Shown here in pieces: positions 1,146-44,721 of a DNA stretch of 64,000 nucleotides (position 1 is the stretch's first letter; each line of letters starts with the position of its first letter). Both the position numbers and the translations under genes were made by a program. The stretch is from Myxococcota bacterium. GTDB lineage: Bacteria; Myxococcota_A; UBA9160; SZUA-336. The notes beneath the pieces were generated by a model, which saw nothing but the letters and a program-made list of their open reading frames with translations, was not told the DNA's origin and ran no database searches. The stretch is taken from NCBI GenBank assembly GCA_965247115.1, contig CBDFGR010000002.1, positions 1,056,001 to 1,120,000 on the forward strand. Reading direction: 5' to 3'.

Positions 1146-1224
1146 GTGCCCCCTCTCACTCCCCCTGGATGCGGGTGTTTGTTGGCCCTAGCATTCCCCA
1201 GGCGGACCTGACGCGTCAACTCTC

Positions 1225-1315
1225 CTTGTGGGGCCCGCCCGCGGGCGGCCGCGGGCACCCACCTTCGCTCAGGGCTACGCCCTTCGCTGCGCGCGCCGCG
1301 GTCCGCGGCGCTTGC
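1225..1315. repeat. Multi-hairpin palindromic repeat element, copy 1 (intergenic)
   Basis: Near-identical to 6994-7085; three internal hairpins; bounded by CTTG(T/C). Confidence 0.85.
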
Positions 1316-6717: not shown

Positions 6718-7289
6718 GACTCCTGTCCTCCCTGATGAGCGCGCGACTGTGTCAGCAGCGCTGTCGCACGCTCGAGAAACCCGTCTAGATCCACGAGACC
6801 CAGCGTCCCGTTGGCCCGATGTACTTCCCGCACGAACGGGTACTCCTCGTTCACGTTCTCTTCTCTCCCCGTCCAGACCGCGCGGTCGCGATCAATCCGA
6901 GACACGTGCCCCACGCGGAGCCCAATCCTCGAGTCGCCGTGTTCCAACAGCAGAACATGGCTGTAGTGCAATCCCGCGTGACCCGGCGCCTGTCTTGCGG
7001 GTCCCGGCCCGCGGGCGGCCGCGGGCGACCCGCCTTCGCTCAGGCCTTCGGCCTTCGCTGCGCGCGCCGCTTCCGCGGCGCTTGCTTCTTGCGCCGGCTC
7101 CAGCCCGAATACGGCCCCGCCGTTCATCACGACGAGCGGCTCGCCTCGGATGTTCAGGACGCCTCCGACGTTGGGCGGCACGAGCGGGATCAGGCGGGGC
7201 TGTTGCGCCCACATCACCTCGGCGACCGCGTCCAGGGGAATCGCGAAGGATCGCTCCCCGAGATCGAACTGCAGCCAGGATGTCGCCAC
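6699..7289 (-). CDS. cheW: CheW coupling protein (DifC-like) with a 29-aa repeat-derived insertion
   Basis: FAIPLDAVAEV, IPLVPPNVGGVLNIRGE and IGLRV motifs. Confidence 0.88.
   Translation of the reverse strand: MATSWLQFDLGERSFAIPLDAVAEVMWAQQPRLIPLVPPNVGGVLNIRGEPLVVMNGGAVFGLEPAQEASAAEAARAAKAEGLSEGGSPAAARGPGPARQAPGHAGLHYSHVLLLEHGDSRIGLRVGHVSRIDRDRAVWTGREENVNEEYPFVREVHRANGTLGLVDLDGFLERATALLTQSRAHQGGQESCLSAF
6994..7085. repeat. Multi-hairpin palindromic repeat element, copy 2, in-frame inside cheW
   Basis: Matches 1225-1315; CTTGC direct repeats 87 bp apart. Confidence 0.85.
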
Positions 7290-23576: not shown

Positions 23577-23652
<76 letters not shown>

Positions 23653-23780: not shown

Positions 23781-24135
23781 TCCGCCCCTTTCGACGATCC
23801 CGACTTCCTCTACGAGGTGAAGTTCCACGGGTTCCGAGAGCTGGCCTACGTCGACGACAGCCATTGCGAGCTCGTCTCCCGGAAAGACCACGTCGATCGG
23901 AGGTTCGCCGATCTCTGCCAGGGCATCGCAGCTGACCTGAAGGCCACCAGCGCGATCCTCGACGGGGAGATCGTGTGCCTCGACGACCAGGGCCGCTCGC
24001 GGTTCTACGACCTCATGTTCCACCGCGGGGGACCCTACTTCTACGCGTTCGATCTGCTCTGGGTGGATGGTGTCGATCTCCGAGATCTGCCCCTTGTGGA
24101 ACGGAAGGCGAAGCTCCGCAAGCTCATATCCCCCC
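23781..24135 (+). pseudogene. ATP-dependent DNA ligase (LigD ligase domain) fragment
   Basis: YEVKFHGFR (KxDGxR with D>H), ILDGEIV, YAFDLLW and LPLVERK motifs; lacks the start and the C-terminal OB domain. Confidence 0.8.
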
Positions 24136-24758: not shown

Positions 24759-25046
24759 CTTCTTCCTTGCGGTCTAACGAGCTGTGGCTAAACCGCTATC
24801 TACCTCAGCATACCGACGGGTCTCCGGAGAGCGGGAAGCGGGCCGAGCCAGAGCTTGCCGGAGCCAATGAGGGCGGTGTGCTGTGCCCGCCCACGAGGAG
24901 AGCCGTGCTGATGCCCGCGAGCAGGGGCCACGGATGTCGATGAAGCAGGCTCATAGACAGCCCGTGTACGCGATCGGGACACTGGAGGTTACGTCCTCCG
25001 ACCGGTCGGCATGAACCAGCCCCACCCTCACGGCTGCTGTATCTCG

Positions 25047-25130
25047 GGGGATAGGGAGCTTAAGAGGGTTTTTCGGGTTCTGACAATGGCCCTTCCCGTC
25101 CTATCGGTTCGTCTGAGGGCCGGGCCGCGG
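25047..25130. repeat. 84-bp dispersed repeat, copy 1 (candidate IS91/ISCR oriIS-like end)
   Basis: GGGGATAGGGAGCTTAAGAGGGTTTTTCGGG...CCCTTCCCGTCCTATC...; 5 mismatches versus copy 2. Confidence 0.85.
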
Positions 25131-25179
25131 CGGCGCCTCTACCCGGGCTGAGCCCCTCTGGGCCCTAGCCCTACCCGGC

Positions 25180-26070
25180 TCAGGTTCTAGCAGGCAGGTA
25201 CTCGCCGTACCACGCGATGGCCTCACGCATCGTCGCATCGAATGCGGGCGGCGTATACACCTCGTAGTGGCCGTAGCCCTCGAGCACCACGAGCCGCTTC
25301 GGCTCCCCCGCCTTCTCATAGAGGATCCGGGACTCCTCGGGCGGGACCAGCCGATCGTCGTCACTGGTGATGAACAGAATCGGGCGGGGCGCCACCTTGT
25401 CGACCACCCACTCAGCGTGATGGCACAGGGTCTCGTCCACGTACTCGAGCGGGATCGTGGAGACCGCAGCCGGGTTGGCCGCCCGGGCCACGGCAGCAAG
25501 CTCGGCGGACTGCCGATCCGGCAGCAGCACCTCCCCTCGCTCGACCTGCTCTGACTGCCCGCTCAGCACCCGCGCCTCGCGGTCGGCGCGCGAGCGCTCG
25601 AGCAGGTCGTGCCACTCGTCGGGGCGGCGGACGCTGCGCATCCAGCGCCGCCCGTCGCCAACCCCGACCACAGACACCACGCAGCGCACCCGCGGATCGA
25701 TGGCCGCAACCCAGACCACGGTTGTACCGCCGTAGCTCGTGCCGTAGATCCCGAGTTTCTCGGCGTCGACCCCGTCCTGCAGGCCGAGGAACGTGAGGGC
25801 CGCCTGCACGTCGGCGACCCGCGACCAAGGCGCAAGCCGGCTCCGCGCCCCCTCGCTCTCGCCCCAGCCCTTGTAGTCGAAGGTGAGCACGACGTAGCCG
25901 GCGTCGTTCAGCACCCGGGCGTTGTCGGGAAGGTATAGATCCTTTACCCCAGTGTAACCGTGACAGAGGACGATGCCCGCGCGCGCGTCCCCGGAGACGA
26001 GGCCCTCGGGAGCGTAGAGATCGCCGACTAGCTTCACACCTTCGCTGTAGAACGTGACGGGGGTCTTCAT
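25180..26070 (-). CDS. Alpha/beta hydrolase
   Basis: LCHGYTG, FDYKGWGESEG, GTSYGG nucleophile, GHYEVY; ATG at 26070. Confidence 0.88.
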   Translation of the reverse strand: MKTPVTFYSEGVKLVGDLYAPEGLVSGDARAGIVLCHGYTGVKDLYLPDNARVLNDAGYVVLTFDYKGWGESEGARSRLAPWSRVADVQAALTFLGLQDGVDAEKLGIYGTSYGGTTVVWVAAIDPRVRCVVSVVGVGDGRRWMRSVRRPDEWHDLLERSRADREARVLSGQSEQVERGEVLLPDRQSAELAAVARAANPAAVSTIPLEYVDETLCHHAEWVVDKVAPRPILFITSDDDRLVPPEESRILYEKAGEPKRLVVLEGYGHYEVYTPPAFDATMREAIAWYGEYLPART

Positions 26071-26558
26071 GGGCGGACTCCGGTGATGGACGGGGCGCCG
26101 GCGAGCTGCGCCGATGCTGTTCGCTCCGAGGCCAACACGTCGAGGGCCGAGGACCACGCGTCGAAGGCGTCACTCACATCCTGCTCCTATGTACGGTGGA
26201 AATGTAATTCTTGCCCGCACCCTTCAGGATCCCACGCTCCAACAACACCTCATTGAAGCGGTGCGCTAGCCCCACGTCGCCGCGACGATAGCCACGATAG
26301 TCTTCGATGGGGCCCGATGCGAATACCCCGTCGAAGCATGGCGGCACGCCCAAGACCTCGGCCTCGAAGCTGCGCACGCGCAGCCGCTCGGAGAGTCCGT
26401 CCATGAGCCGTTGGCCCGTGGCGAAGAGCTTCTCGTAGGTCCCGGGTTCTCGGAGCACCTCCAACGTCGCGAGACCCGCCGTGGCGGAGACCGGATTTCC
26501 CGACAGCGTGCCCATCTGAACCAAGTAGTGCTCCCGGTCGACGCGGCTCGCGTCAAAA
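26067..26558 (-). pseudogene. 3' fragment of a class-III aminotransferase (GSA aminomutase-like)
   Basis: FDASRVDREHYLVQMGTLSGNPVSATAGLATL; 5' end cut at repeat copy 2; 1-nt frameshift near 26187; original stop overlaps the hydrolase ATG (ATGA). Confidence 0.8.
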
Positions 26559-26642
26559 GGGGATAGGGAGCTTAAGAGGGTTTTTCGGGTTCTGACAATA
26601 GCCCTTCCCGTCCTATCGATTGGTCTGAGGTCCGGGGCGCGG
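26559..26642. repeat. 84-bp dispersed repeat, copy 2
   Basis: Direct repeat of 25047-25130. Confidence 0.85.
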
Positions 26643-26772
26643 GCGCTCGATTTTCGTGATGCCCGAACGGCGCGCCAGCATATTCGGAACTGGCGCCCAC
26701 GCTGATATGCTGTTGCTTGCGCTTACGACATGAGCGCGAACTACATAAAAAAGAGATACGGGGGAGGAGACC

Positions 26773-28569
26773 GTGGACGACATCAGGACGCAGGACGACC
26801 CGATCTTCCGTTCCGAAGTGCGCGACGGCATGCGGATCGACTGGGATGTGCCGATCGCCATGGATGACGGGGTGGTGCTGCGCGCCAATGTGTATCGGCC
26901 CAACGACGACGGCAGCTATCCCGCGATCATGAACTACGGCCCCTATTCGAAGGACCTGGCGTGGCAGGAAGGCTACGCGGCGGTCTGGGACATGTTCTCG
27001 CGCGACCATCCCGAGGCGGTTGCCGGATCGTCCAACATTCACCAGAGCTGGGAAGTGGTCGACCCGGAGAAATGGGTGCCCGACGGCTTCGCCTGCGTCC
27101 GGGTCGATTCGCGCGGCGCCGGGCGCTCACCGGGCGTGATCGATTGTTTCTCCCCCCGCGAAGCTCAAGACTTTGCCGCCTGCATCGATTGGGCCGGTAC
27201 CCAGGGCTGGTCGAACGGCAAAGTCGGCCTGTCGGGCATTTCCTACTACGCCATCAACCAATGGCACGTCGCCGGCCTGCAGCCCAAGCACCTAGCCGCC
27301 ATGTGTGTCTGGGAAGGCGCCGCCGACTTTTACCGCGATATGACCCATCACGGCGGCATCCTCATGCCGGCGCTGGGTATCTGGTACACGAACCAGGTCA
27401 AGTCGGTGCAGCACGGCGTCGGCGAAAACGGCGACCGCAGCCGGGTTCACGGCGAACTCGTCGCCGGCCCCGATACGCTGTCGGAGGCCGAGTTGGAGAA
27501 AAACCGTACCGATCTCGGCGCTGAGATCGCCAAATATCCCCTCGACGACAAATTCCACCGGGCACGCTCGGCCGATTGGTCCAAGGTCAAGGTGCCGTTC
27601 CTATCGGCGGCGAGCTGGGGCGGCCAGGGGCTGCACCCGCGCGGCAATTACATGGGGTTTGAGCACGCCGCCTCGAAGCAGAAGTGGCTGGAATGCCACG
27701 GCCTCGAACATTGGACCGAATTCTACACCCCATACGGTCTGGACCTGCAGAAACAGTTCTTTGGCCACTTCCTCAAAGGCGAGAAAAACGGTTGGAACAA
27801 GCGCCCGCCGGTGCTGCTCAAGGTGCGCCACGTCGGCGAGAAATTCGTCGAGCGGGCGGAGAAGGAGTGGCCGCTCAAACGCACCAAATGGACCAAGGTC
27901 TATCTCGACCCGGCGAACATGAACCTCGCGGCGGAGGCACCAAAAAAGGCAGCGAAGCTCAGCCATGACGGCATGGGCGACGGCGTGACGTTTTTCCTGC
28001 CGCCGGCCGACGAAGATGTCGAGATCACCGGCCCCATGGCCGCCAAGCTGTTCGTGTCGTCGGAAACCGAGGACGCCGACCTGTTCCTGGTCGTGCGCCT
28101 GTTTACGCCGGACATGAAGGAGGTCACGTTCAAGGGCACGATCGACCCAAATACGCCGATCGCCCAAGGCTGGCTGCGCGCCTCGCACCGCAAGCTCGAC
28201 AAGAAAATGACCAAGCGCTGGCAGCCCTGGCACAGCCACGATGAAAAGCAGCCGTTGAAGCCGGGCAAGGTCTACGAGCTCGACATCGAGATCTGGCCGA
28301 CTTGCATCGTCGTGCCGGCGAGCTATCGGCTGGCGTTGAGTGTGCGCGGTAAGGACTATGTCTATTCATGTGCCAACAACGCAGTCGTGTTACCGGGCTA
28401 TCCGCCGTTCAGCGGGTGCGGCTTTTTCATTCACACCGACCCCAAGGATCGGCCGAAGTCGGTGTTTGGCAAGCAGGTAACGCTGCACACCGGCCCCGAG
28501 TATAAGTCGCATCTTCTGCTTCCGGTGATCCCCGCCACGGGCAAGACTGGCAAGAAAAGGAAGCGGTAG
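26773..28569 (+). CDS. CocE/NonD family hydrolase
   Basis: DGVVLRANVYRP, DSRGAGRSPG, WSNGKVGLSGISY, GWLRASHR; GGAGG RBS. Confidence 0.92.
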   Translation: MDDIRTQDDPIFRSEVRDGMRIDWDVPIAMDDGVVLRANVYRPNDDGSYPAIMNYGPYSKDLAWQEGYAAVWDMFSRDHPEAVAGSSNIHQSWEVVDPEKWVPDGFACVRVDSRGAGRSPGVIDCFSPREAQDFAACIDWAGTQGWSNGKVGLSGISYYAINQWHVAGLQPKHLAAMCVWEGAADFYRDMTHHGGILMPALGIWYTNQVKSVQHGVGENGDRSRVHGELVAGPDTLSEAELEKNRTDLGAEIAKYPLDDKFHRARSADWSKVKVPFLSAASWGGQGLHPRGNYMGFEHAASKQKWLECHGLEHWTEFYTPYGLDLQKQFFGHFLKGEKNGWNKRPPVLLKVRHVGEKFVERAEKEWPLKRTKWTKVYLDPANMNLAAEAPKKAAKLSHDGMGDGVTFFLPPADEDVEITGPMAAKLFVSSETEDADLFLVVRLFTPDMKEVTFKGTIDPNTPIAQGWLRASHRKLDKKMTKRWQPWHSHDEKQPLKPGKVYELDIEIWPTCIVVPASYRLALSVRGKDYVYSCANNAVVLPGYPPFSGCGFFIHTDPKDRPKSVFGKQVTLHTGPEYKSHLLLPVIPATGKTGKKRKR

Positions 28570-29157
28570 GCGGATCGGGCGCGCCCGGCGCGCCGGGCCT
28601 AAAATTCTGGCCGCTTTGCCGGCGCGGACGGCACGCTCGCACTCGGTCACCGGCGCGTCCGCCAGAGTTGCCCGATGGCCGTAGAAGGGTGAACTTCGTT
28701 GTGCTGCCGCGCGGGCGCATTAACCTTGCCAGAACCGGGCAGCTCTAAAGGTCTTGCTGATTAATCCCGTATTCAAACCTGTCTCCGTCTGCCCGGCCAA
28801 CGTGCGAGGATCCGCCGCTGAGAGTTGGCCCGCCGCCACAGGTCTAAAGCTCGCCAGCTGCCTGGTTACAGGCAAGAGGGCTACGTCACCCCTCGATGAC
28901 CCCAAGCCTGCTGTACCGCTGCGCGCGCGAACTCCGAGCTGAGCGTCTGCTTTGCTGCTCCCGCGGCGCCGCAACCCGATCATCTCACCCTCTAGCTTGT
29001 CGATGACGTGCAGAGCGGTAACAAGCGCCAATCTCGGCTCGTCGCCCAACCCGAGATCGAGGAAGACCCCCGTCCCGGGAGAAACCGAGATGGGAATCGC
29101 TCAGGTTCCGGGTGTTGGGTCCAGCTGGCGACCGTCAGTGACACGTGTCGCGCGAGG

Positions 29158-30489
29158 TCAACGCGAAGGTCCTGCGAGCTCGTCCTTCGCCTTCATGTCC
29201 GCGTGCAGCGTGCGGGCAGCGAGCAGGAAGAGCGTGATCGCCAGGACCTTGGCGACGGCCACCGCCAGCAGCGAGTAGCGCACCGCCTCCGCGCCAACCG
29301 TCGGGTTCAGCAGGTCGTTCAAAATGCCCACGAACTGCGGGCCGGCGCCCATGCCGATGATGTTCAGCAGGAACAGCAGCACGGCCGAGGCGAGCGCCCG
29401 CATGCGCACCTTCACGAGCGAGTGCGTGAGAACGATGATCGGTCCGAGGGTCACGGACGAGACGAGGACCGAGGGGAAGTAGAAGATGAGGGCGAGCGTG
29501 GGGTCGTCGACGAGCAGGAATGGGATGACGAATGGCAGGTAGCAGGCCAGCCCCAGCGACGGGACCCAGAGGTACCAGCGCACGTCGCGGCGTCCCAGAC
29601 GATCGGCCAGTACTCCACCAAGCACCGCGCCAATCGCCCCGGCCACGCCCGTTTCGATGCCGATCCAGGTTCCTATTTCACCGGTGCCCATACCGTGGAC
29701 GCGACCCATGAACGCCGGCACCCAGGTGAGAAAGCCGTAGGCGCCGAAGGCGGTCAGGCCCATGCCGATCGAGTACAGCACGAAGCTGCGCAGGCGGATC
29801 AGGAAGCGGGCTACGTCCCGCAAGCTGTCGCTCGACGCGTCGACCGGTACGGTCTCCGACATGCCACGCGGGGGCTCCCTGATGGTGAAGCGGACCACGA
29901 GCGCGAAGAGCAGACCAGGCCCCCCCACGACGAAGAACGCGACACGCCAGCCAAAGAACTCGTTGACCCAGCCACCCGCCAGGAGCCCGAGCATGACCCC
30001 GACGGAGATTCCCGTGTTGTAGATCGAGATCGCGGTCGCTCGGCGCTCGAGCGGGAAGTAGTCCGAGATCAGCGAGTGGGCCGGGGGCGTCCCCGCAGCC
30101 TCGCCGACGCCGACACCGATCCGCGCCAGGGCCAGCTGGCCGAAGGTCTGGACGACCCCGCAGAGGGCTGTCATCACGCTCCAGCCAGCGAGACCCGCGG
30201 CGATGATCGACCGGCGAACGCCGCGATCGGCCAGGCGGGCGATCGGGATACCGGCGAACGTGTAGAAGACCGCGAACGCGAAGCCGGTCAGGAACCCCAT
30301 TGCCGTGTCGGAGGCGCCGAGCTCTTCCTTGATCGGGTCCAGCAGAATGGCCAGGATGTTGCGGTCGAGCAGGTTGAAGACGTAAACGAAGAAGAGGACG
30401 GTGAGGACGTAGTTCGAGTACCCGGGGGAGAACTTCTGGGCGCCCTCTCCGGTTGCGGCGTCGGAAGCTCTCGGACGTCTCTCCTGCAC
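29158..30489 (-). CDS. MFS transporter (spinster-like)
   Basis: NLLDRNIL, ARLADRGVRR, ARIGVGVGEA and SLISDYFP motifs; about 12 hydrophobic helices. Confidence 0.92.
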   Translation of the reverse strand: MQERRPRASDAATGEGAQKFSPGYSNYVLTVLFFVYVFNLLDRNILAILLDPIKEELGASDTAMGFLTGFAFAVFYTFAGIPIARLADRGVRRSIIAAGLAGWSVMTALCGVVQTFGQLALARIGVGVGEAAGTPPAHSLISDYFPLERRATAISIYNTGISVGVMLGLLAGGWVNEFFGWRVAFFVVGGPGLLFALVVRFTIREPPRGMSETVPVDASSDSLRDVARFLIRLRSFVLYSIGMGLTAFGAYGFLTWVPAFMGRVHGMGTGEIGTWIGIETGVAGAIGAVLGGVLADRLGRRDVRWYLWVPSLGLACYLPFVIPFLLVDDPTLALIFYFPSVLVSSVTLGPIIVLTHSLVKVRMRALASAVLLFLLNIIGMGAGPQFVGILNDLLNPTVGAEAVRYSLLAVAVAKVLAITLFLLAARTLHADMKAKDELAGPSR

Positions 30490-30580
30490 GGCTTGCCCTC
30501 GCGGCTGATCGCCTGAGCATACACGGGTCCACTTTGCTCGAGCCGCCTACCTCGATGATGGCGCTCCGTTCGGGCGAACG

Positions 30581-30930
30581 TCAGCCGAGCGCGGGGGTGG
30601 CCGAGTCGCGGCCGGAGCGCAGCACGATCCCGGGGCGGGCATCCGTGAACGTCCCGTCCCGCACGATCTCGACCCCGTTCACCAGCACGTGGTCGATGCC
30701 CCGAGCCTCGCCGTAGAGGCGGCTCGCCCCGGCCGGGAGGTCCGCCCGCGTGTGGACGGGGCCGGGTCCGATCGAGTCCAGGTCGAACACGACCAGATCG
30801 ACGCAGAAACCGGGCTCGATCCGGCCGCGTCCGCGCAGACCGTAGAGCTGTGCCTGGACGTCGGTCAGCAAGTGAACTGCTTCTTCGAGCGAGAGCAGGG
30901 CGCGCTTTCGCACGGCCCCTTCCAGCATCC
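30581..30930 (-). pseudogene. C-terminal fragment of an N-acyl-D-amino-acid deacylase family amidohydrolase
   Basis: LSLEEAVHLLT, RGRIEPG, DLVVFD, DLPAGASRL, VLVNG; only about 115 aa remain. Confidence 0.78.
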
Positions 30931-30976
30931 CCGCAGGTACCCGCGCGTGTGGGCGACGCGGGCCGTCGGTTTCGGG

Positions 30977-32050
30977 CTATAAGTTCCGGAGATGCGGCAT
31001 GACCTCCGCGGCGAACAGCTGTTGCGTCTGTCGCGCCACCGGCTCGGGAATCCCGCGCGTGCGCATGACCATGGCGATGCGCCGCGCGCCCGTCGCAAGC
31101 AGACCCTCGCTGAGTTCGTCCAGGACGGTCTGCGGGGGACCGGCCACGGCGCCTGAAAGAAACGGAAGGATCTCCTTGGCCTCTGGCTCGGGCAGTCCCC
31201 TGCGGAGCAAGGCGTCCCAGGCGATCTCTCTCGCGCGATCCTGTGCGTCCTTGGCCTCCGCCTCGGAGGGCGCGATGATGATGGACGTCGCGACCATGAA
31301 GTTGGCAACCGAGAGCTGATGACCCGCGGCCTGTCCCGCTTCCACGTAACGTTCGAGTGTTCCGTCGGCCTCGCGAGAGAAAACACCGTACAGGTTCTGA
31401 CCCAGCCTCCCGACTTGCTCCACGACCTCGGGCCGCGTCGCAGGGATCCAGATACGACGCGACGCAGCGTCAAAGGGCTTGGGGTAGACCGTGGAAGGCG
31501 CGCTGATCGTCGTGTACCGCCCGTCGAAGGTGATCGAGTGCTCATGCAGAGCCCGAGTGAGCAGCTCGAGGCCCTCGTCGAAGCGCGCCTGTAGCTCGCT
31601 CTCTGCAGGGGTGTAGCGGGTTCGCTCGATGGAGAAGTTGCCTTTTCCCACACCGATCTCGGCGCGGCCGTTGCTCAGCATGTCGAGCATGCCCATCTCC
31701 TCGGCGAGCCGCCAGGGGCTATGGATGCTGAGCACGTGGACGGCCTGGCCGAGACGGATCCTCGAGGTCTCCCTCGCCACGGCAGCGAGGTAGACGTTCG
31801 GCGAGGGCACCACGGTCCACGCGTCGAAGTGGTGCTCTGTCGTAGCCAGGCCATCAAAGCCGAGCTGCTCTGCCTCGATAGCGTCTTCGATCAAGCCCTC
31901 GAGGGTCGCGCGCGCAGCTGCTGGATCGTAAGCCTCCGGCTCCCACGCACCCTCATACGGAAGGCCGTCGAAGCGAATGAACTTCGTGATCTCCGGCTCC
32001 TCATCCCAGCGAGGGATTCGCGCCGTTCTACCGTTCGCTGCGTCCGTCAT
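30977..32050 (-). CDS. Luciferase-like (LLM class) flavin-dependent oxidoreductase
   Basis: AEQLGFD..TEHHF, PWRLAEEMGMLDMLSNGRAEIGVGKG and LFAAEVMPHL motifs. Confidence 0.92.
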   Translation of the reverse strand: MTDAANGRTARIPRWDEEPEITKFIRFDGLPYEGAWEPEAYDPAAARATLEGLIEDAIEAEQLGFDGLATTEHHFDAWTVVPSPNVYLAAVARETSRIRLGQAVHVLSIHSPWRLAEEMGMLDMLSNGRAEIGVGKGNFSIERTRYTPAESELQARFDEGLELLTRALHEHSITFDGRYTTISAPSTVYPKPFDAASRRIWIPATRPEVVEQVGRLGQNLYGVFSREADGTLERYVEAGQAAGHQLSVANFMVATSIIIAPSEAEAKDAQDRAREIAWDALLRRGLPEPEAKEILPFLSGAVAGPPQTVLDELSEGLLATGARRIAMVMRTRGIPEPVARQTQQLFAAEVMPHLRNL

Positions 32051-32309
32051 GCTCTCACTCCGCCGCTGCGATGTCTTACTGCTGGAAGCGGGGGTAGTAG
32101 TTCGCGGGGCCTAGCGCGTTCGCGTCCGTGACCCAGTCTCCGTCGTAAGCCCACTCGGATTCGCGGCCGGGAAGAGGCCCTTGCCAGAACCTTGCCAGCG
32201 GATGCCTCGGCTGTCGTCAACACGGCGCCGCCGAACGTGGCGGGTCCCAGCGCCGCCAGCGTGTCGGAGTGCCGCACCAGCGGCATCCCGAGCCGCTCCG
32301 CGATGCGAT

Positions 32310-32613
32310 CGGCCGACAGCCGCTTGTACGTGTGGAGCAGGTCGTCCAGGGAGGAGAACGTATAGGCCACGTGGTCGACACCGACCGACTGCTCCTCGGC
32401 AGGCTTGAAGTCCGAGTTCTGGATGATGGCGAGCCGGTGGTGCTCGCTGTCGAAGGTCATGAACGCGGCGATCGGATTCTCGAACACGGCCCGCGCGCCG
32501 AGCACCTTCTCGTACCAAGCCTTCAGCTTCTGGAGGTCGCGGGTGCGCAGGACGAAATGCGCCATGTACGCCGGCGGGATCGGTCTGTCCAGGCTATCTA
32601 GCTCTCTCGACAT
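32310..32613 (-). pseudogene. Truncated VOC/glyoxalase-family protein fused to unrelated sequence
   Basis: AHFVLRT, FMTFDSEHHRLAI, GVDHVAYT, LLHTYKRL; the C-terminal strands are missing. Confidence 0.7.
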
Positions 32614-32902
32614 GCGAGTCCTCTCTGGGAGCCGTCGCTGCGCAGTATCCTGTACACGAGCAGGGGCGCGGGTCAAGTCGCGCGCTAGTTTCTCTCCGAT
32701 GGCATAAGCCTCCGGAATTCCTGCGGTATTCACGGGCTTTTGATTCCTTGCCAGCGCATGCGGCACGAACCGCCACCGTCGGCAGTCAACGCAACTCCAG
32801 CGTACCAGCCGGTTCCTGTAGGGAGGCGGACAAGCGACTGCGGGCCGAGTCTCTCCGCCTGCAGTAGAATCCCAATTCTATGGCAGTGGTGATGTAGCCG
32901 AG

Positions 32903-33988
32903 ATGGCCCTGCTCGGCCTCTACGTCGTGCTGGCCGTCGGCGTGTCGTTTCTGTGCTCCATCATGGAGGCGGTGCTGTTGAGTGTCACCCCCGCCTACAT
33001 CGGAGTGCTGGAGAAGAACGCGCCTGGTTCCGCGCGGCAGCTGCGCGCGCTAAAGGACGACATCGATCGGCCGCTCGCCGCCATTCTCAGTCTCAACACG
33101 GTGGCCCACACCGTCGGGGCGGCGGGCGCAGGCGCGCAGGCCGCGGTCGTCTTTGGAAGCGCGGCTGTGGGCGTGTTTTCTGCGCTCCTGACGCTCGCCA
33201 TCTTGGTGGTGAGCGAGGTCGTCCCAAAGACGATCGGGGCGCTCCATTGGCGCGTGCTCGCGCCCGTCGTGGCGCAGACGCTGGGGCCGATGATCTGGGT
33301 CCTCAGCCCTCTGGTGTGGCTGTGCCAGCTCATCACCGGCTTGGTCTCGCGCTGGAAGGAGGACGAGCCAGCGGTCAGCCGGGAGGAGCTCATCGCGATG
33401 GCGGACATCGGGGAGCTGGAAGGAGTGATCGAGGCCGACGAAACCCGGATCGTCAAGAATCTGATGCGCTTTCGCGCACTGACCGCTAAGGACGTGATGA
33501 CGCCCCGCACGGTGCTCCTGGCGTTCCCGGAGTCTGCGACCGTTGCACGAGTCACCAAGCGAGGCATCCCCTTCTCGCGCATTCCCATTTACGACAAGAA
33601 CCCCGACCAGGTAACCGGCTACGTCCTCAAGGACCAGGTCCTTCAGGCGGTCGCGGAGGATCGCCACGACCAGCCCCTGACCGCCCTGCGCAGAGAGATC
33701 CTCGCGGTACCAGCGCGCTTCCCCCTCCCGCGGCTGTTCGACACGCTCGTCTCCCACCGCGAACACATGGCGCTCGTCGTCGAGCACGGCGGGACCGAGG
33801 GCATTGTCACGATGGAGGACGTGATCGAGACGCTGCTCGGCCTCGAGATCATGGACGAGGTGGACGAGACGCAGAGCATGCGGCAGCTCGCGCGGCGGCG
33901 CTGGGAGGAGCGGGCGGCGCGCCTGGGCCTACTCTCCGAGGAGTTCGTGGTGCCGCCGCCCGGCTCGAACAAACCGGAGCGCGACTGA
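32903..33988 (+). CDS. CNNM (DUF21)-CBS domain hemolysin-family membrane protein
   Basis: SFLCSIMEAVLLS, AILSLNTVAHT, SEVVPKTIG, VMTPR, FSRIPIY and GIVTMEDVIE motifs. Confidence 0.92.
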   Translation: MALLGLYVVLAVGVSFLCSIMEAVLLSVTPAYIGVLEKNAPGSARQLRALKDDIDRPLAAILSLNTVAHTVGAAGAGAQAAVVFGSAAVGVFSALLTLAILVVSEVVPKTIGALHWRVLAPVVAQTLGPMIWVLSPLVWLCQLITGLVSRWKEDEPAVSREELIAMADIGELEGVIEADETRIVKNLMRFRALTAKDVMTPRTVLLAFPESATVARVTKRGIPFSRIPIYDKNPDQVTGYVLKDQVLQAVAEDRHDQPLTALRREILAVPARFPLPRLFDTLVSHREHMALVVEHGGTEGIVTMEDVIETLLGLEIMDEVDETQSMRQLARRRWEERAARLGLLSEEFVVPPPGSNKPERD

Positions 33989-34012
33989 TCTGATGCGGCT
34001 GAGGAAAGAGGG

Positions 34013-34285
34013 TCAGTCGATGCCAGCTTCGCGGCGAAGGCGCGCCTTTCGTGACGCTGCGAGAGAGTCCCAGTGAACGTCACGAAGTGCGCCCTCCAAC
34101 GAATACAGGTAGTAGCAGACTGAGACGGTCTCTTCCGCGTGCCGTTCGCAGACGCGCCGAAAGACCCTCGCGGGACCGACGCGTTCCAGTTCGTCTCGGG
34201 TGCGTATTCCGACCGCGTGCAGACGACGGGCGATCGTCGGGCCGATGTTCCTCAGTGAGCGGATGGACTCATCGTTCTTCCTCAC
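34013..34285 (-). CDS. TfoX C-terminal domain protein
   Basis: LRNIGPTIARRLHAVGI and LYSLEGALRDVHW motifs; AGGAG RBS before GTG at 34285. Confidence 0.8.
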   Translation of the reverse strand: MRKNDESIRSLRNIGPTIARRLHAVGIRTRDELERVGPARVFRRVCERHAEETVSVCYYLYSLEGALRDVHWDSLAASRKARLRREAGID

Positions 34286-34354
34286 TCGGACTCCTGCCTG
34301 CAGGGCTTCCCGCGCGGCCGACACACCTTTTCGCACCGGCCCTGCGTCAAAGTA

Positions 34355-35194
34355 TCACCGCGACGAGCTCATCTCGAACTCACCTCGTTCCTTGAGCGGA
34401 AGCGCAACCTCCGTGACGAGCTCTTCTGCCGGTACGTCTGCGGGGTCGTTGGCATAGAACTCCCAGACGGGGCCGAGCGGTTCATGGCCATGCTCCTGCA
34501 CCCAGGCCAACAGGGCGTGGTAGGCGAGGCCCAGAGCTTCGTAGGGTCCCACGTGCGTGAGGCACGCGAAGGGGCCGCCCGGAAGGCGCGCGATCTTGGC
34601 TCTATGCAGCTCGCCGGGTTCCGTCGTGAGCCCAACGCAGGCGTGCACCGCGATTCGATCCTCTCCTTCGCTGAACTCATTGATCGCCAGCACTGGTTCG
34701 CGAACTTCGAGTCCGACGCTCCGCAGTTCATCCAACAGCGCGTATACGAGCTCCGTGGTGTCCGAAACGAGGCGGTCTGAATCCGTCGTTCCACTGATCC
34801 GAGCGACTTGTCGCTCAGGATGTTCCCGGATCGCGACTTCATAAGGCGCCAGCTCACCGACTTGCGCAATACGCCGCAGGGAGAGCAAGGTTCTCTGGCG
34901 CGCGACGACCTCAACTTCGATGCGCGCAGTCTCCGCATCGATCAACTCCTTCAGATCTGCTGGCTCGGCAGCGAGCGCTCTTCGGATCACCGCCAGAGGC
35001 AGATCCAGAGAGCGCAGCATGCCGATCATCAGCGCGTCGCGCGCCTGATCCCTGCTGTAATGGCGATACTTGGACTGCGGATCCACGAAGGCAGGCTTGA
35101 GCAGCCCGAGCTCGTCGTAGTGGCGCAGCGCTTTCACGCTCAGACGACAGCTGCGAGCGAAGCGCCCGATCGGCATTAGATTGCATTGGACCAC
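34355..35194 (-). CDS. MerR family regulator with GyrI-like effector domain
   Basis: IGRFARSCRLSVKALRHYDELGLL, YRHY and HVGPYE motifs. Confidence 0.92.
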   Translation of the reverse strand: MVQCNLMPIGRFARSCRLSVKALRHYDELGLLKPAFVDPQSKYRHYSRDQARDALMIGMLRSLDLPLAVIRRALAAEPADLKELIDAETARIEVEVVARQRTLLSLRRIAQVGELAPYEVAIREHPERQVARISGTTDSDRLVSDTTELVYALLDELRSVGLEVREPVLAINEFSEGEDRIAVHACVGLTTEPGELHRAKIARLPGGPFACLTHVGPYEALGLAYHALLAWVQEHGHEPLGPVWEFYANDPADVPAEELVTEVALPLKERGEFEMSSSR

Positions 35195-35204
35195 GAGTAG
35201 AAGC

Positions 35205-35612
35205 CTAGTCGATCTTGTAGCTGTCTGTATGGTCAGCCGCCGCGGGGATCATCTTGACGACGTCGAGCAGCAGCCCCGTCGGATCTCGGGTGATGAAGTG
35301 ACGCTGCCCCCAAGGTTCATCTCGCAGATTCAGCACGATCGGCAACTCAAGGCTGACAGCGCACGCATGGATGTGATCTACATCGTCCGATTCCAGTGTC
35401 ACGATCACTCCGTCTGGTGGATTCTGGTGCCCTTTTGGAACGCTCGGATGGGTTCGCTGCACGAAAGCGATCTCAACCGTTGGATCGCTCGGCGCTTGCA
35501 GCTGGACATACCAGTCGGTCTCGAACACTGGCTTGAGGCCAAGAAGTTGTTGGTAGAACTCACTGATTGCTGTGACGTCGTCGGTGCAGATGACCGGGAA
35601 TAAACTCTTCAT
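35205..35612 (-). CDS. VOC/glyoxalase/bleomycin-resistance family protein
   Basis: FYQQLLGL..VFETDWY and DEPWGQRHFITRDPTG motifs. Confidence 0.9.
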   Translation of the reverse strand: MKSLFPVICTDDVTAISEFYQQLLGLKPVFETDWYVQLQAPSDPTVEIAFVQRTHPSVPKGHQNPPDGVIVTLESDDVDHIHACAVSLELPIVLNLRDEPWGQRHFITRDPTGLLLDVVKMIPAAADHTDSYKID

Positions 35613-35653
35613 GAGAGACCCCCTTTATGCTCGCCTTCGTGGCGCCAGGACCT

Positions 35654-35684
35654 AGAATCGGGTCTCCCCCAACAGGAGAGTCAA
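35654..35684 (-). promoter_or_regulatory. MerR-type promoter/operator for the VOC-merR operon
   Basis: TTGACT, 19-bp spacer, GATTCT, with dyad TCTCC-N6-GGAGA overlapping the spacer. Confidence 0.7.
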
Positions 35685-35790
35685 GGCCCAGCCCGTGAAT
35701 GACTCCACCGAGGGCCCAGCCAGAACGGGAGCAGTCGCCAGGATCGAAGAATCTGTGGCGATCGGGGAAGTCTGTCTTGCGCTCCTACCC

Positions 35791-35875
35791 TATGGAAGGG
35801 AGTTTAAGAGGGTTTTTCGGGGTGTTGACAATGGCCCTTCCCGTCCTATCGATTGGTCTGAGGGCCGGGGCGCGG
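35791..35875. repeat. 84-bp dispersed repeat, copy 3 (left tip diverged)
   Basis: AGGGAGTTTAAGAGGGTTTTTCGGGGTGTTGACAATGGCCCTTCCCGTCCTATCGATTGGTCTGAGGGCCGGGGCGCGG. Confidence 0.85.
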
Positions 35876-35906
35876 CCCTTATCTAGCACAGCCATGCCGA
35901 GCTGGA

Positions 35907-36737
35907 CTATGCCGCGAGCTTGTTCCGCGCGCCGCGCAGGAATTTGATGGTCGACGCGATGGTTTTGTCCGGACACTCCACCAAGTCCGCGTGGCCGATG
36001 TCCTCGTAGACGATCACCTCGCAGCCCGGGACGTTGTCGACCACCCATTGCGCGCCGGCGCCGTCCGGGCCGGTGTGTATCGGGGTTAGCATGTCCTTGG
36101 CCGCGGTGATCACAAGCGTCGGATTCTTGATCTTCTTGCAGTCCTCGCGGAGGTCCATTTTCTCCATTGCGAGGCAGGCCTGTACCACCGTCTCGACCGA
36201 GTTGAGCCCGACCACCGTGCGCACCATCTCGATCAGGCCGGGCCCTTCCGGGCCATCGAGATAGTCGGCACCGACCGCCTGTGTCACGACATGATCGGCG
36301 AACTCCGGCCCGCACCCCCAGGTCTGGGCCATATGGCGCCAGGTGCGGAACATGATCCGCCGCATGGTGTCGCATTTCGCGAAAGCGCAATCGCTGACCA
36401 CGCCGATGCAGCGATCCGGATATTTCGCCGCGAATTTGAGCGCGATCATGCCGCCTGCGGAGGTGCCCATGACATGGGCCCGATCGATGTCGAGCGCATC
36501 GAGGAGTGCCGCCAGATCATCCGCCCAGAGATCGAGGTCATACTGCATGAGCGGGCGATCCGATTGACCGTAGCCCCGCTGATCGTAGCTAATCAGCTTG
36601 AACTCCTTGGCGAGCCCTTCCCAGACCAAGCCGAAATTCTGCCGCCCGAAGAGCGAGCCGCCGATCAGAGCGAGCGGCTCGCCCTCGCCCATGAACTCGT
36701 AATAGATGTTGATCCCGTTGGCCTCGACCTTGGGCAT
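35907..36737 (-). CDS. Alpha/beta hydrolase (enol-lactonase-like)
   Basis: MPKVEANGINIYYE, YDQRGYGQS, GTSAGG, GH near the C-terminus; GGAG RBS. Confidence 0.9.
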   Translation of the reverse strand: MPKVEANGINIYYEFMGEGEPLALIGGSLFGRQNFGLVWEGLAKEFKLISYDQRGYGQSDRPLMQYDLDLWADDLAALLDALDIDRAHVMGTSAGGMIALKFAAKYPDRCIGVVSDCAFAKCDTMRRIMFRTWRHMAQTWGCGPEFADHVVTQAVGADYLDGPEGPGLIEMVRTVVGLNSVETVVQACLAMEKMDLREDCKKIKNPTLVITAAKDMLTPIHTGPDGAGAQWVVDNVPGCEVIVYEDIGHADLVECPDKTIASTIKFLRGARNKLAA

Positions 36738-36802
36738 GATGCTCTCCTTCGTTTGGCGACACAGGGATAGGCCTCGCCGAGCGGCTCGTACTTGGGGGCT
36801 GT

Positions 36803-38248
36803 CTACTCGACAGGGATCTTGAATCGAGAACGCGAGATGATCCGACCTGAGCCCTTCTCGGCGTCGACTTCTCCTCCCTCGTAGACCACCTCGCCCCGCC
36901 GAATCGTGATCTGCGGCCACCCGGTGACCTCCGTCCCGGCGTAGATCGAGAACCCGGTCTTTGAGAGGACGTCCGAGTCGGCGATGGTTCTTCTCTCGTC
37001 CGGATCCCAAATCACGAGGTCGGCGTCGGAACCGGGCGCGATGGTGCCCTTGCGAGGGTATAGCCCGAAGAGCTTTGCCGCGTTGGTGGAGGACACCTCG
37101 ACGAAGCGTTGCAGCGAGATCTTTCCCCCGTGGACTCCTTCGGAGAAGAGCATGGGCAGCATCACCTGGAGATTGTTCACGCCGGGGCGAAATGAAGTGA
37201 TGGTCTGTTGCGGGTCGAGCTTTTCCTCGCGGGTCCAAGGAGCGTGGTCGGTGGCCAGCGTGGCGATTGCGCCGCTTGCGAGCCCCTCCCACATGGCCTC
37301 CCGATCGTCCGCTCCTCGAATCGGTGGCATTCCGACGAAGAGCGCTCCGTCGGCCCGGCGGTAGTTCGCCTCCGTGAAGTGGAGGTACAGGGGACGCGTC
37401 TCGACGAACACAGGAAACCGCGACTGCACCGCCTCGGCCGCCGCGAGGGCCCGGGCGGCCGACAGGTGGACGATGTAGATCGCCGCCCCCGTGATCTCCG
37501 CCATCGCCAGGGCACGTTCCGTCGCGACGACCTCGGAGATGATGGGGCGGCTCTCCGGGTAGTGTGCGAGCGAGGTCTTGCCGGCGTCCGTCAACTCCTG
37601 CGCCGCGAACTCGAGCGCGGCGGCGTCCTCGCAGTGGATCGCGACGAGGATTCCCGCGTCTCGCGCGCCACGCAGGAGTCGCAGGAAACCGGGCATTTCC
37701 GCGTCGAACGGCTCGAACGGCATGAAGACCTTGATCGACGGCTGGCCGGCGGCGGCGAGCTCCGGTAGCTCCCCGATCACCGCCTCCGTGGGCTCGAAGA
37801 TGGTCGTGTGGACGAAAACGTCGGCCATCGTCAGCTCTTCGATGGGAACGCTCTCCCGAGCCAGTGTCGCGAGCGGGCCCTCCCCAGGAGCTGGAAACGC
37901 CATGTGACCCACCGTGGTGATTCCCCCCGCGAGTGCCGCGCGGGTCCCGCTCTCGAAATCGTCGGCGAAGGCGAACTCCTCCGAGGACGTCAGGTGCACG
38001 TGGGGATCGACCCCTCCGGGCAGGATCAGGAGGCCGCTAGCGTCGAGGACCCGAGCATCCGTCTCAACTCGCTCGAGAGATCCGATCTCATCGATCGTTT
38101 CTCCCCGAATCCGGATGTCCGCCTTACGCTCCCCTTCGGCGGTTACAACGGTTCCACCCTGAATCAGCAGATCCGTTGCGCCCGCTGGTGGCGAGAGGGT
38201 CAAGATCGAGAGTACGGCCGTGGCTCCGGCTGTTCGGATATAGGTCAT
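36803..38248 (-). CDS. Dihydropyrimidinase/D-hydantoinase family amidohydrolase with signal-like N-terminus
   Basis: PGGVDPHVH, AALAGGITT, IHCED, VHLS, ATDHAPW and GSDADLVIWDP motifs. Confidence 0.9.
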   Translation of the reverse strand: MTYIRTAGATAVLSILTLSPPAGATDLLIQGGTVVTAEGERKADIRIRGETIDEIGSLERVETDARVLDASGLLILPGGVDPHVHLTSSEEFAFADDFESGTRAALAGGITTVGHMAFPAPGEGPLATLARESVPIEELTMADVFVHTTIFEPTEAVIGELPELAAAGQPSIKVFMPFEPFDAEMPGFLRLLRGARDAGILVAIHCEDAAALEFAAQELTDAGKTSLAHYPESRPIISEVVATERALAMAEITGAAIYIVHLSAARALAAAEAVQSRFPVFVETRPLYLHFTEANYRRADGALFVGMPPIRGADDREAMWEGLASGAIATLATDHAPWTREEKLDPQQTITSFRPGVNNLQVMLPMLFSEGVHGGKISLQRFVEVSSTNAAKLFGLYPRKGTIAPGSDADLVIWDPDERRTIADSDVLSKTGFSIYAGTEVTGWPQITIRRGEVVYEGGEVDAEKGSGRIISRSRFKIPVE

Positions 38249-38284
38249 TCTGCATTATCACTTCCGTGAACCCAGGATGCCAGC

Positions 38285-38541
38285 TGTAGGCCGTGAGCCG
38301 AGTTTGGACAGATGGGGTCGATGATCTAAGAGAGGGTTCCGGGCTCGCTGGAGCAAGGAGTTTCTGGAGGCGGGCAAGAAGCGCCTGCTGGGAGATACGC
38401 AGCGAGAGGCGAGCTCGAGTGAGGTCCACGATCTGCGCAAGGAGAACGCCCGGCTCAAGGAGCGGGTGGCCGAGACGGTGCTCGAGAACCGTCCGCTCAA
38501 AAAAAGCGGACCAACGGTCCCAGAAGATCTGACGACGTACA
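38285..38541 (+). mobile_element. Internally deleted miniature IS (IS3/IS481-like), 257 bp
   Basis: Imperfect terminal inverted repeats TGTAGGCCGTGAG.../...CTGACGACGTACA; orfA remnant WSKEFLEAGKKRLLGDT...LKKS. Confidence 0.8.
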
Positions 38542-43867: not shown

Positions 43868-44044
43868 TGATCAAATCTGGAGAGGGCTTTCGAGTTCGTG
43901 AAGGCAAACAGGGCCGTTCATTGAGGGGCTGCGATCTGCTGGTGTTCCCCCCGGGGAGTATTGTGCATCATTCGGGACTCCCTGTTCTCAGTTTCATTTT
44001 GCTCGGTGGGCTACCATCGGAGATCATCGTCGGCGGCCTTCACC

Positions 44045-44476
44045 TGTAGGCCGTGAGCCGAGTTTGGACAGATGGGGTCGATGATCTAAGAGAGGGTTCC
44101 GGGCTCGCTGGAGCAAGGAGTTTCTGGAGGCGGGCAAGAAGCGCCTGCTGGGAGATACGCAGCGAGAGGCGAGCTCGAGTGAGGTCCACGATCTGCGCAA
44201 GGAGAACGCCCGGCTCAAGGAGCGGGTGGCCGAGACGGTAATCGAGAACCGTCTGCTCAAAAAAAGCGGGACGGGCTCCGATTTGCCCGAGGACGAGGCG
44301 TGAGGGGGAGCGCCTCGGAGAAGCTCGAGCGGATCCGCCTGGTGGAGGGCTCTTCGCTTTCGATCCGGCGCACGCTGACCGAGATCGGGCTGCCGCACTC
44401 GACGTTTTCCGCCTGGTACAAGCGCTACCTGGAAGGCGGACCGGAGGCGCTCGAAGACCGCAAGCCACGCCTCTGG
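44045..44476 (+). mobile_element. Second relic of the same IS (left end, orfA 3' part, orfB start)
   Basis: First about 225 bp nearly identical to 38285-38509; continues SASEKLERIRLVEGSSLSIRRTL...WYKRYLEGG. Confidence 0.82.
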
Positions 44477-44721
44477 AGTTCGAAGCGCGACTTCCAGTTC
44501 ATCGCCGGTCTCCCCCGCGAGGCCCAAATCGTTAGAATGGCGACCCTGAAACGTCGTGGCAGCGGAGCGGCTGACCCCTCGCAGTTCCACGGCTGGCCGC
44601 TCTCAGCTGCAGCATGGCGGCTGGCGAAAGTAGTGTGACGTATGTGTGCCAGTCGGTCGGGCGAAGGTGCGGAATGCTCGGCCCCAAACCCACACATTCG
44701 CGGCCGTTCTAAGGTGCTGAT

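Follow-up and report, generated by a model that had tools for sequence, protein, structure and literature searches.

Orphan IS91/ISCR-type origin ends as candidate start and stop points for the copying of gene units in a Myxococcota genome

What is a short repeat that encodes no transposase doing at the boundaries between unrelated gene blocks? The question is raised by a 64,000-nt stretch of a Myxococcota genome (GenBank assembly GCA_965247115.1, contig CBDFGR010000002.1, positions 1,056,001–1,120,000), referred to here as the window, in which the initial annotation correctly placed three co-oriented copies of an 84-bp repeat, at 25047–25130, 26559–26642 and ∼35791–35875. We find that this repeat is the oriIS (replication origin) end of an HUH-type insertion sequence (IS) of the IS91/ISCR family. 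We further consider it probable, at roughly 60%, that the HUH transposase of the element itself released such orphan origin ends by a second cut further inside, and that copying of adjacent genes as units has since begun and ended at them.

The source genome of the window (G000, 5.17 Mb) carries 18 copies scoring above 20 bits, with 22 matches in total in a profile search, and the same pattern run backwards gave 0 matches, so the copies are not a product of chance. The sister genome G002 has 19 copies in the stretches first examined and two further ones found later. A query with the DNA itself did not find this origin family in 59 of 60 relatives, another comparison gave a weak match in the genome G001, and a scan of genome contigs placed the family in one genome only. 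Within the window, copy 2 is 94% identical to copy 1, and copy 3 is 76% identical without gaps (it has a 1-nt indel and a different tip). Each copy has, as annotated, a hydrolase gene on its right, namely a UilS-like alpha/beta hydrolase, a CocE/NonD hydrolase and a PcaD-like alpha/beta hydrolase; of the three, only CocE/NonD exceeds its NCBIfam cut-off.

The identification as oriIS, first proposed from resemblance, stands because a copy trails a Y2 transposase fragment, related transposases share this layout and the tip aligns with those of ISCR1 and ISVsa3. The only Y2 transposase match (PF04986) in G000 is a 5'-truncated half (C2:1293083-1293940), and a copy of the repeat (C2:1294072-1294150) lies 130–210 bp behind it with its tip facing away; at C2:822686-822973 a transposase scrap likewise has a copy behind it. 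Related full-length transposases have a CCTATC-type tip ∼190–370 nt behind the stop codon, and CCTAT[CA] is found at most 520 nt behind 19 of 60 related metagenome transposases, compared with 2/60 and 6/60 in controls. The tip is in register with ISCR1 (the 22-bp oriIS of which is quoted in PMC13023784), with ISVsa3 and with a Pseudomonas IS91-family end, AGG and AA being invariant in 11 of 11 rows. The closest full-length relative has ISCR clade Ia as its top NCBIfam match, under the cut-off of that family.

The three window copies themselves have no transposase nearby. As had been noted, no IS91 transposase is present in the window, since the sole PF04986 and PF14319 matches of the genome lie outside it; scraps of other ISs inside it are an IS110 end and an HTH_28 fragment at 44300–44635. 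Only broken pieces of the cognate transposase occur in G000, in agreement with the non-autonomous state initially proposed for these origins. In 80 metagenome loci the best candidate for the cognate enzyme reached 56%, and G002 has two full transposases, but of another origin family (family X). Separately, an origin tip, an IS110 and an N-terminal transposase fragment lie together at G000:C3:1212190-1213726, with a tyrosine-recombinase-like frame upstream (by motif), and we read this locus as a collapsed full element.

Several other identities were tried and rejected. The end of a DDE-type IS or of a miniature inverted-repeat transposable element does not fit, as the parent is a Y2 gene and the repeat has no inverted ends: no terminal inverted arms were seen at the copies among the 25 longest inverted pairs, and comparison of their left and right flanks by eye revealed no target duplication. 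An integron is contradicted by the absence of any integrase family among 24 island frames and by copies that fold worse than shuffled sequences. A hairpin or RNA role is unsupported: at the gathering threshold Rfam matched only tRNA in the window and thus no structured RNA in the repeat, and the copies fold no better than shuffles (z of +1.5, +1.3 and +0.7). The inverted repeat GATAGG...CCTATC described earlier does exist, but it is only 6 bp long and is absent from copy 3 and from the CCGATC subtype.

The left tip proved to be the sharp, constant boundary that had been predicted, with GGA at 20 of 20 distinct outside flanks; the two positions before it are G in 19 and 17 of the 20, there is no consensus further out, and public contigs depart from the window sequence at 25046/25047. 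The target motif expected beside the tip did not appear, the outside flanks having no consensus outside GGGG. This GGGG is missing from the donor alleles compared and therefore travels with the origin. Genes are severed exactly at tips, among them aminotransferase, Rieske, major facilitator superfamily (MFS), luciferase-like monooxygenase (LLM) and glyoxalase genes. The class-III aminotransferase cut by the tip of copy 2, already recognized in the initial annotation, is reduced to a fragment that begins at F287 of a 436-aa homologue; residues 1–286 are missing, and the N-terminal part was not found in G000. In homologues the residue preceding this Phe is mostly His or Leu, and Pro in none of the 12 most frequent pairs, so the junctional CCCC is assigned to the repeat.

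Two observations on tips stand apart. Beyond the tip of a solo origin in the genome G051 (L245:13109-13150), the tip motif CCTATCCG recurs in several short repeats that look like scars of repeated cutting and rejoining. In G002, a repeat-family origin is joined tip-first to a 134-bp family X origin (L095 near 10343, L255 near 3695), so that origins of different families nest in each other.

The inner end of the repeat is also fixed, at ∼82 bp, with 26 different flanks beyond it. To place this border we used each relative's own origin as the query and a 300-nt reference. Matches numbered 20 for family X in G002 (which has its two intact transposases), 12 in G044, 8 in G034 and 3 in G010; G051 has one full and one solo copy, and its origin as the query gave 10 in G043. 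The alignments comprised 67 copies, 9 of which reach the end of the reference while 58 are partial, and in 25 of the 58 the end falls 6–8 nt short of a conserved AAGC box (six origin families plus the repeat family). The best window in 20,000 uniform simulations held 13. The repeat family contributes 14 of its 29 partial copies and all other families together 11 of 29 (family X 5/12, G044 4/8, G051 1/1, G034 1/5). Because solo origins measure ∼74, 82, 84, 93 and 111 bp across five unrelated origin families, the border follows a motif rather than a distance. The bases left behind beyond it resemble a second tip (e.g. GGGGATTCAAGC in G043) and, by eye, a tiny GC hairpin ends at the border in four families. 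This fixed border suggests a built-in second transposase cut.

Deletion bias combined with selection would offer another account of the border: G-rich runs at the inner edge would favour slippage, and the copies would be kept as outward promoters or as minimal working origins. In line with this, three or four inner junctions have microhomology, and a TTGTCA/TAAACT-like pair with 17–18 nt spacing is directed out through the tip in 22 of 30 copies (in the window at 25047–25090, among others); ISCR1 origins contain working outward promoters (PMC6218425). The genes of units 1 and 3 (listed below) run in the direction of such boxes from the next tip, and the hydrolase of unit 3 starts 23–26 nt from it. 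However, the promoter-like boxes reach only ∼40 nt inward from the tip, half the distance to the border, which itself tracks the AAGC box over lengths of 74–111 bp in unrelated sequences, and a consensus scan of 24900–26800 returned 0 promoters. We regard this account as improbable and keep to an inner cut by the transposase as the better explanation.

In the window, the solo origins and the blocks they bound are arranged as follows.

23577..23652, + strand: tRNA-Phe, left edge of the island, outside the origin mechanism; synteny with G002 stops at its 3' end
25047..25130, + strand: solo oriIS copy 1, tip GGGGATAGG on the left and inner border on the right; public contigs diverge at 25046/25047
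25047..26558, + strand: unit 1 (1,512 bp), origin, hydrolase and aminotransferase fragment; missing from one public contig (run X18, joint 25119 to 26632)
25180..26070, − strand: alpha/beta hydrolase, top NCBIfam match UilS-like lactonase, under cut-off
26112..26558, − strand: C-terminal third of a class-III aminotransferase, severed at the copy 2 tip; frameshift near 26187
26559..26642, + strand: solo oriIS copy 2, with a private GAGCTTAAG variant that it alone shares with copy 1
26773..28569, + strand: CocE/NonD family hydrolase, first gene inside copy 2
28570..35713, no strand: mosaic middle block of MFS transporter, amidohydrolase fragment, LLM monooxygenase, glyoxalase fragment, CNNM/CBS, MerR-GyrI and glyoxalase genes; its inner junctions have no origin
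35714..35796, + strand: IS110-family right-end remnant, inserted into the copy 3 tip
35797..35875, + strand: solo oriIS copy 3, tip interrupted by IS110
35797..36762, + strand: unit 3, origin and PcaD-like hydrolase; a 99% identical unit in G002 and two further partial copies in G000
35907..36740, − strand: PcaD-like alpha/beta hydrolase, under cut-off; start codon 23–26 nt from the next tip site
36763..36771, + strand: 9-bp tip remnant AGGGATAGG, a fourth origin site; elsewhere a full origin (G002) or an IS110 left end (G000:C2:2199113) begins at this base
36803..38248, − strand: dihydropyrimidinase-like amidohydrolase, a multi-copy block likewise bounded by origins in G002

Cargo differs between genomes and moves with the origin, as anticipated, in the case of unit 3 and of an allele from run X18. 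Unit 3 (35804–36771, 968 bp) is 99% identical to G002:C32:710542-711509; the genome backbones are 88–89% identical. In G002 another sequence adjoins it on the outside, and a full origin also closes its far side, so that origins bound it on either side. In contigs (not reads) from 4 of 4 runs, the end of the unit is joined to an origin (joint 36768 to 35797), which fits either a circle or a tandem origin; in run X2 other sequence then follows, so there the arrangement is tandem. In a 2,355-nt contig from run X18, the left flank leads into one origin only and from there into the CocE gene; the 1,512 bp left out equal the distance between copies 1 and 2 to the base. In a second X18 contig the match to the left flank ends at 25046. 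The complete genome G051 has a 100% identical 92-bp solo origin 2.0 kb behind its full element, and the block between them consists of an intact dinB-family gene between two gene fragments. The origins that bound such blocks are thus likely handles by which genes are captured and swapped.

Such exchange might also take place if the origins, once made by a transposase, were passive patches of homology, their cargo being traded solely through RecA recombination of one 80-bp copy with another and through the many other ISs of these islands, with no capture at all. Bardaji et al. (2011) took this view of IS801 fragments (PMC3189936), and it accords with a G000 that has no working transposase, with an X18 allele whose letters change at positions 74–78 and not at the tip, with the many island junctions, the majority, that have no origin, and with the ∼30 copies of another IS in G000. 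Nevertheless, recombination swaps flanks and cannot create new origin–cargo junctions; 26 different inside flanks at one inner position require a repeated site-specific step; and the exact severing of the aminotransferase, Rieske, MFS, LLM and glyoxalase genes at tips tells against it as well. We therefore judge exchange by homology alone to be unlikely and prefer copying from orphan origins.

The initial annotation also had copy 3 ending in CTCCCTATCCCC, which is not the case: its first bases are replaced by an IS110 right end (35714–35796), and its odd tip is an IS110 insertion scar. Six G000 copies start with GCGCTCCTACCCTATG instead of GGGGAT. A 1.64-kb IS110-family element (G000:C2:1294148-1295790), aimed at the oriIS tip and with guide-like segments in its downstream non-coding region, supplies this sequence as its right end. 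All 5 intact left ends of the element are preceded by a G-run and GGAT, and the non-coding region has a 10-nt match to the origin target (17/5,000 shuffles). Two candidates were rejected on the same ground, the 'type B' tip as a terIS–oriIS circle junction and GGATAAGC as a second origin family, each being an end of the IS110 element. The placement of these left ends, the right end in six origin copies and the guide-like match could be taken to mean that an IS110 bridge recombinase aimed at the tip does the cassette shuffling itself. This seems highly improbable to us: it explains neither the inner border nor the copies with intact tips, and 0 of the 19 G002 copies listed carry the right end, yet the same units are found in G002.

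If orphan origins are copied as we propose, the transposase would nick the tip and peel off the strand beginning GGGGATAGG. It would often halt early at the inner tip-like site (consensus approximately GCG|GGGATTCAAGC, the bar marking the cut) and thereby leave a minimal origin, as IS801 does at 229, 360 and 679 nt. The box beyond the cut would stay behind, giving a solo origin without a stop that would read into the DNA on its inside (one-ended transposition). A second co-oriented tip would end the round exactly and yield a circle of origin plus cargo, which could re-enter at another tip or by recombination between 80-bp copies. The transposase probably arrived in trans; it is now broken in G000, and therefore units may at present be gained and lost mostly through homologous recombination. 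Insertion of IS110 into a tip would switch that origin off.

A number of points weigh against this mechanism. Origins mark 3 (4 with the remnant) of about a dozen block junctions in the island. G000, G001 and G002 yielded no intact cognate transposase; G000 retains only the equivalents of residues 1–96 and 281–505, without the HUH part, and among 7,993 scored longer proteins the best full-length relative reaches ∼60% over the whole query. The border rule fails in G010 (0/2) and G043 (0/1), and of 16 more distant origins, only 6 show the AAGC box. The count of 25 border copies carries an uncertainty of ∼2 nt in the BLAST ends, and these copies are not all independent, at least one pair being the same junction in two genomes. 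Some inner junctions have G-rich microhomology to the donor (GGGGCCGC, GCTC, GGGG), which slippage or recombination could also give. Comparison of flanks and donor alleles brought out no target tetranucleotide next to the tip. The X18 allele is a single short-read contig of depth 6.5, for which a mis-join across the repeat is possible, and it changes from copy-1 to copy-2 letters at positions 74–78, near the inner end and not the tip; recombination between copies could do the present shuffling. A clean insertion, with both flanks adjacent elsewhere, was seen for 0 of 26 copies in the sequences compared (four family X copies lay outside this test), and in 20 outside frames no Pfam family continued a gene on the inside, though the early-stop step predicts some such cases. 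Copies that lie next to each other are not, as a rule, more similar (p = 0.04 in G000, 0.67 in G002), and no circle was found.

Wider patterns suggested by the initial annotation fared less well. A preference for catabolic cargo is not apparent (14 of 22 origin sites vs 9 of 20 evenly spaced control sites, Fisher p = 0.35, by our own classification), nor is general co-orientation (11 of 16 adjacent pairs, p = 0.11); among pairs under 10 kb, 10 of 13 are co-oriented (p = 0.046, with the cut-off picked afterwards). A role for the tRNA found no support, as the 17 kb that follow this tRNA-Phe in G002 are free of such origins. Relative to a uniform genome, the origins of G000 are clustered (6 gaps under 15 kb, p = 5e-5), with accessory islands as a confounder.

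Some other features were noted in passing. A fragment of an ATP-dependent DNA ligase gene lies directly behind the tRNA-Phe (window 23817–24130). A 229-bp direct repeat (98%; window 38281–38509 and 44041–44269) is HTH_28-type IS scrap and flanks the gene for a 1,498-aa Ig/Calx-beta protein together with an fn3 gene, and another GC-rich two-copy repeat of ∼90 bp lies at window 1209–1299 and 6979–7070, 5.77 kb apart. Elsewhere in G000, tandem arrays of a ∼2-kb unit (C2:2004148-2024087 and C3:1196000-1212000) have at least 8 units in a row that are 84–89% alike; the unit has a frame of ∼635 aa with a signal-like N-terminus, and one copy ends exactly at an origin tip.

Two better-known systems invite comparison. 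Non-autonomous Helitrons capture gene fragments through rolling-circle read-through, and the initial idea of Helitron-style stacking holds as an analogy but not beyond it: the transposase here is of the bacterial IS91-type Y2 kind, and no search for a RepHel helicase was made. Integron cassette arrays consist of units of a short site with a gene or two, in tandem in places, gained or lost whole and possibly read from a neighbouring promoter. The arrays described here likewise pair a short site with one or two genes, stand in tandem at some places, are gained or lost whole and may be read from a promoter nearby. Unlike integrons, they have no integrase in the 24 island frames scanned and no attC-like hairpin, their cargo is often cut mid-gene and lies in either orientation, and the chemistry would be that of single-strand HUH enzymes rather than of a tyrosine recombinase.

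The closest parallels lie within the IS91 family. In IS91 the final 82 bp suffice for transposition with tnpA supplied in trans, failed termination takes neighbours along, and the strand read from the origin becomes the active circle (PMC13181058). IS91 and IS1294 resemble the present case, as observed or as proposed, in having the origin downstream of tnpA, a sufficient 82-bp end, a transposase acting in trans, read-through capture and insertion of single-stranded circles (PMC13181058), whereas here no CTTG/GTTC-type target and no circle were found. Early stops in IS801 leave fixed-length origin ends in 26% of insertions, and miniature right-end derivatives of 229, 360 and 679 nt are attributed to one-ended transposition (Bardaji et al., 2011; PMC3189936). 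These, too, are fixed-length, transposase-free origin-end fragments of the IS91 family, and they move in trans, as is proposed here; the full IS801 also took along adjacent gene fragments (PMC3189936). The IS801 miniatures end at a target-like tetranucleotide, and its authors state that they saw no other common motif (PMC3189936); in contrast, the fragment here is close to the 82-bp minimal origin, its end tracks a box common to unrelated families, and there are ∼20 copies per genome that bound recurring gene units. ISCR1 and ISVsa3/ISCR2 share the tip motif in register, and in the two-origin 'sandwich' of ISCR28 a gene likewise lies between two sequential origins (Yuan, 2024, as cited in PMC12772301). 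The ISCR cases are single resistance genes beside a transposase gene, whereas the lineage studied here, an uncultured one in the Myxococcota, has many solo origins at a great distance from any transposase.

Earlier publications describe origin-end miniatures and two-origin capture (PMC3189936; ISCR28 as cited in PMC12772301) as well as IS91-borne catabolic circles (PMC5737581), and according to PMC6218425 no ISCR had been seen to transpose in an experiment as of 2018. In the literature covered, which takes in few subscription papers, we came across neither a conserved inner cut, nor solo-origin arrays spanning a genome, nor an exact origin-to-origin presence/absence allele. What the present analysis adds is the inner border that tracks a motif across families and an allele in which presence or absence runs exactly from origin to origin.

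A broader picture can be offered only tentatively. An IS91/ISCR clade with a programmed second cut inside its origin might shed minimal origins that turn the DNA beside them into excisable, stackable cassettes, giving integron-like shuffling by single-strand HUH chemistry that would be common across this class of Myxococcota and policed by an RNA-guided IS110 aimed at the tip. ISCR elements are credited with the capture of many resistance genes, and how a gene gets between two origins is unsettled; a conserved inner cut, being a single mutable site, would explain both solo origins and two-origin 'sandwiches', and G002 and G051 provide natural pairs of an intact transposase and a solo origin. 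Because 80-bp origin sites encode nothing and escape annotation, gene traffic of this kind would be undercounted.

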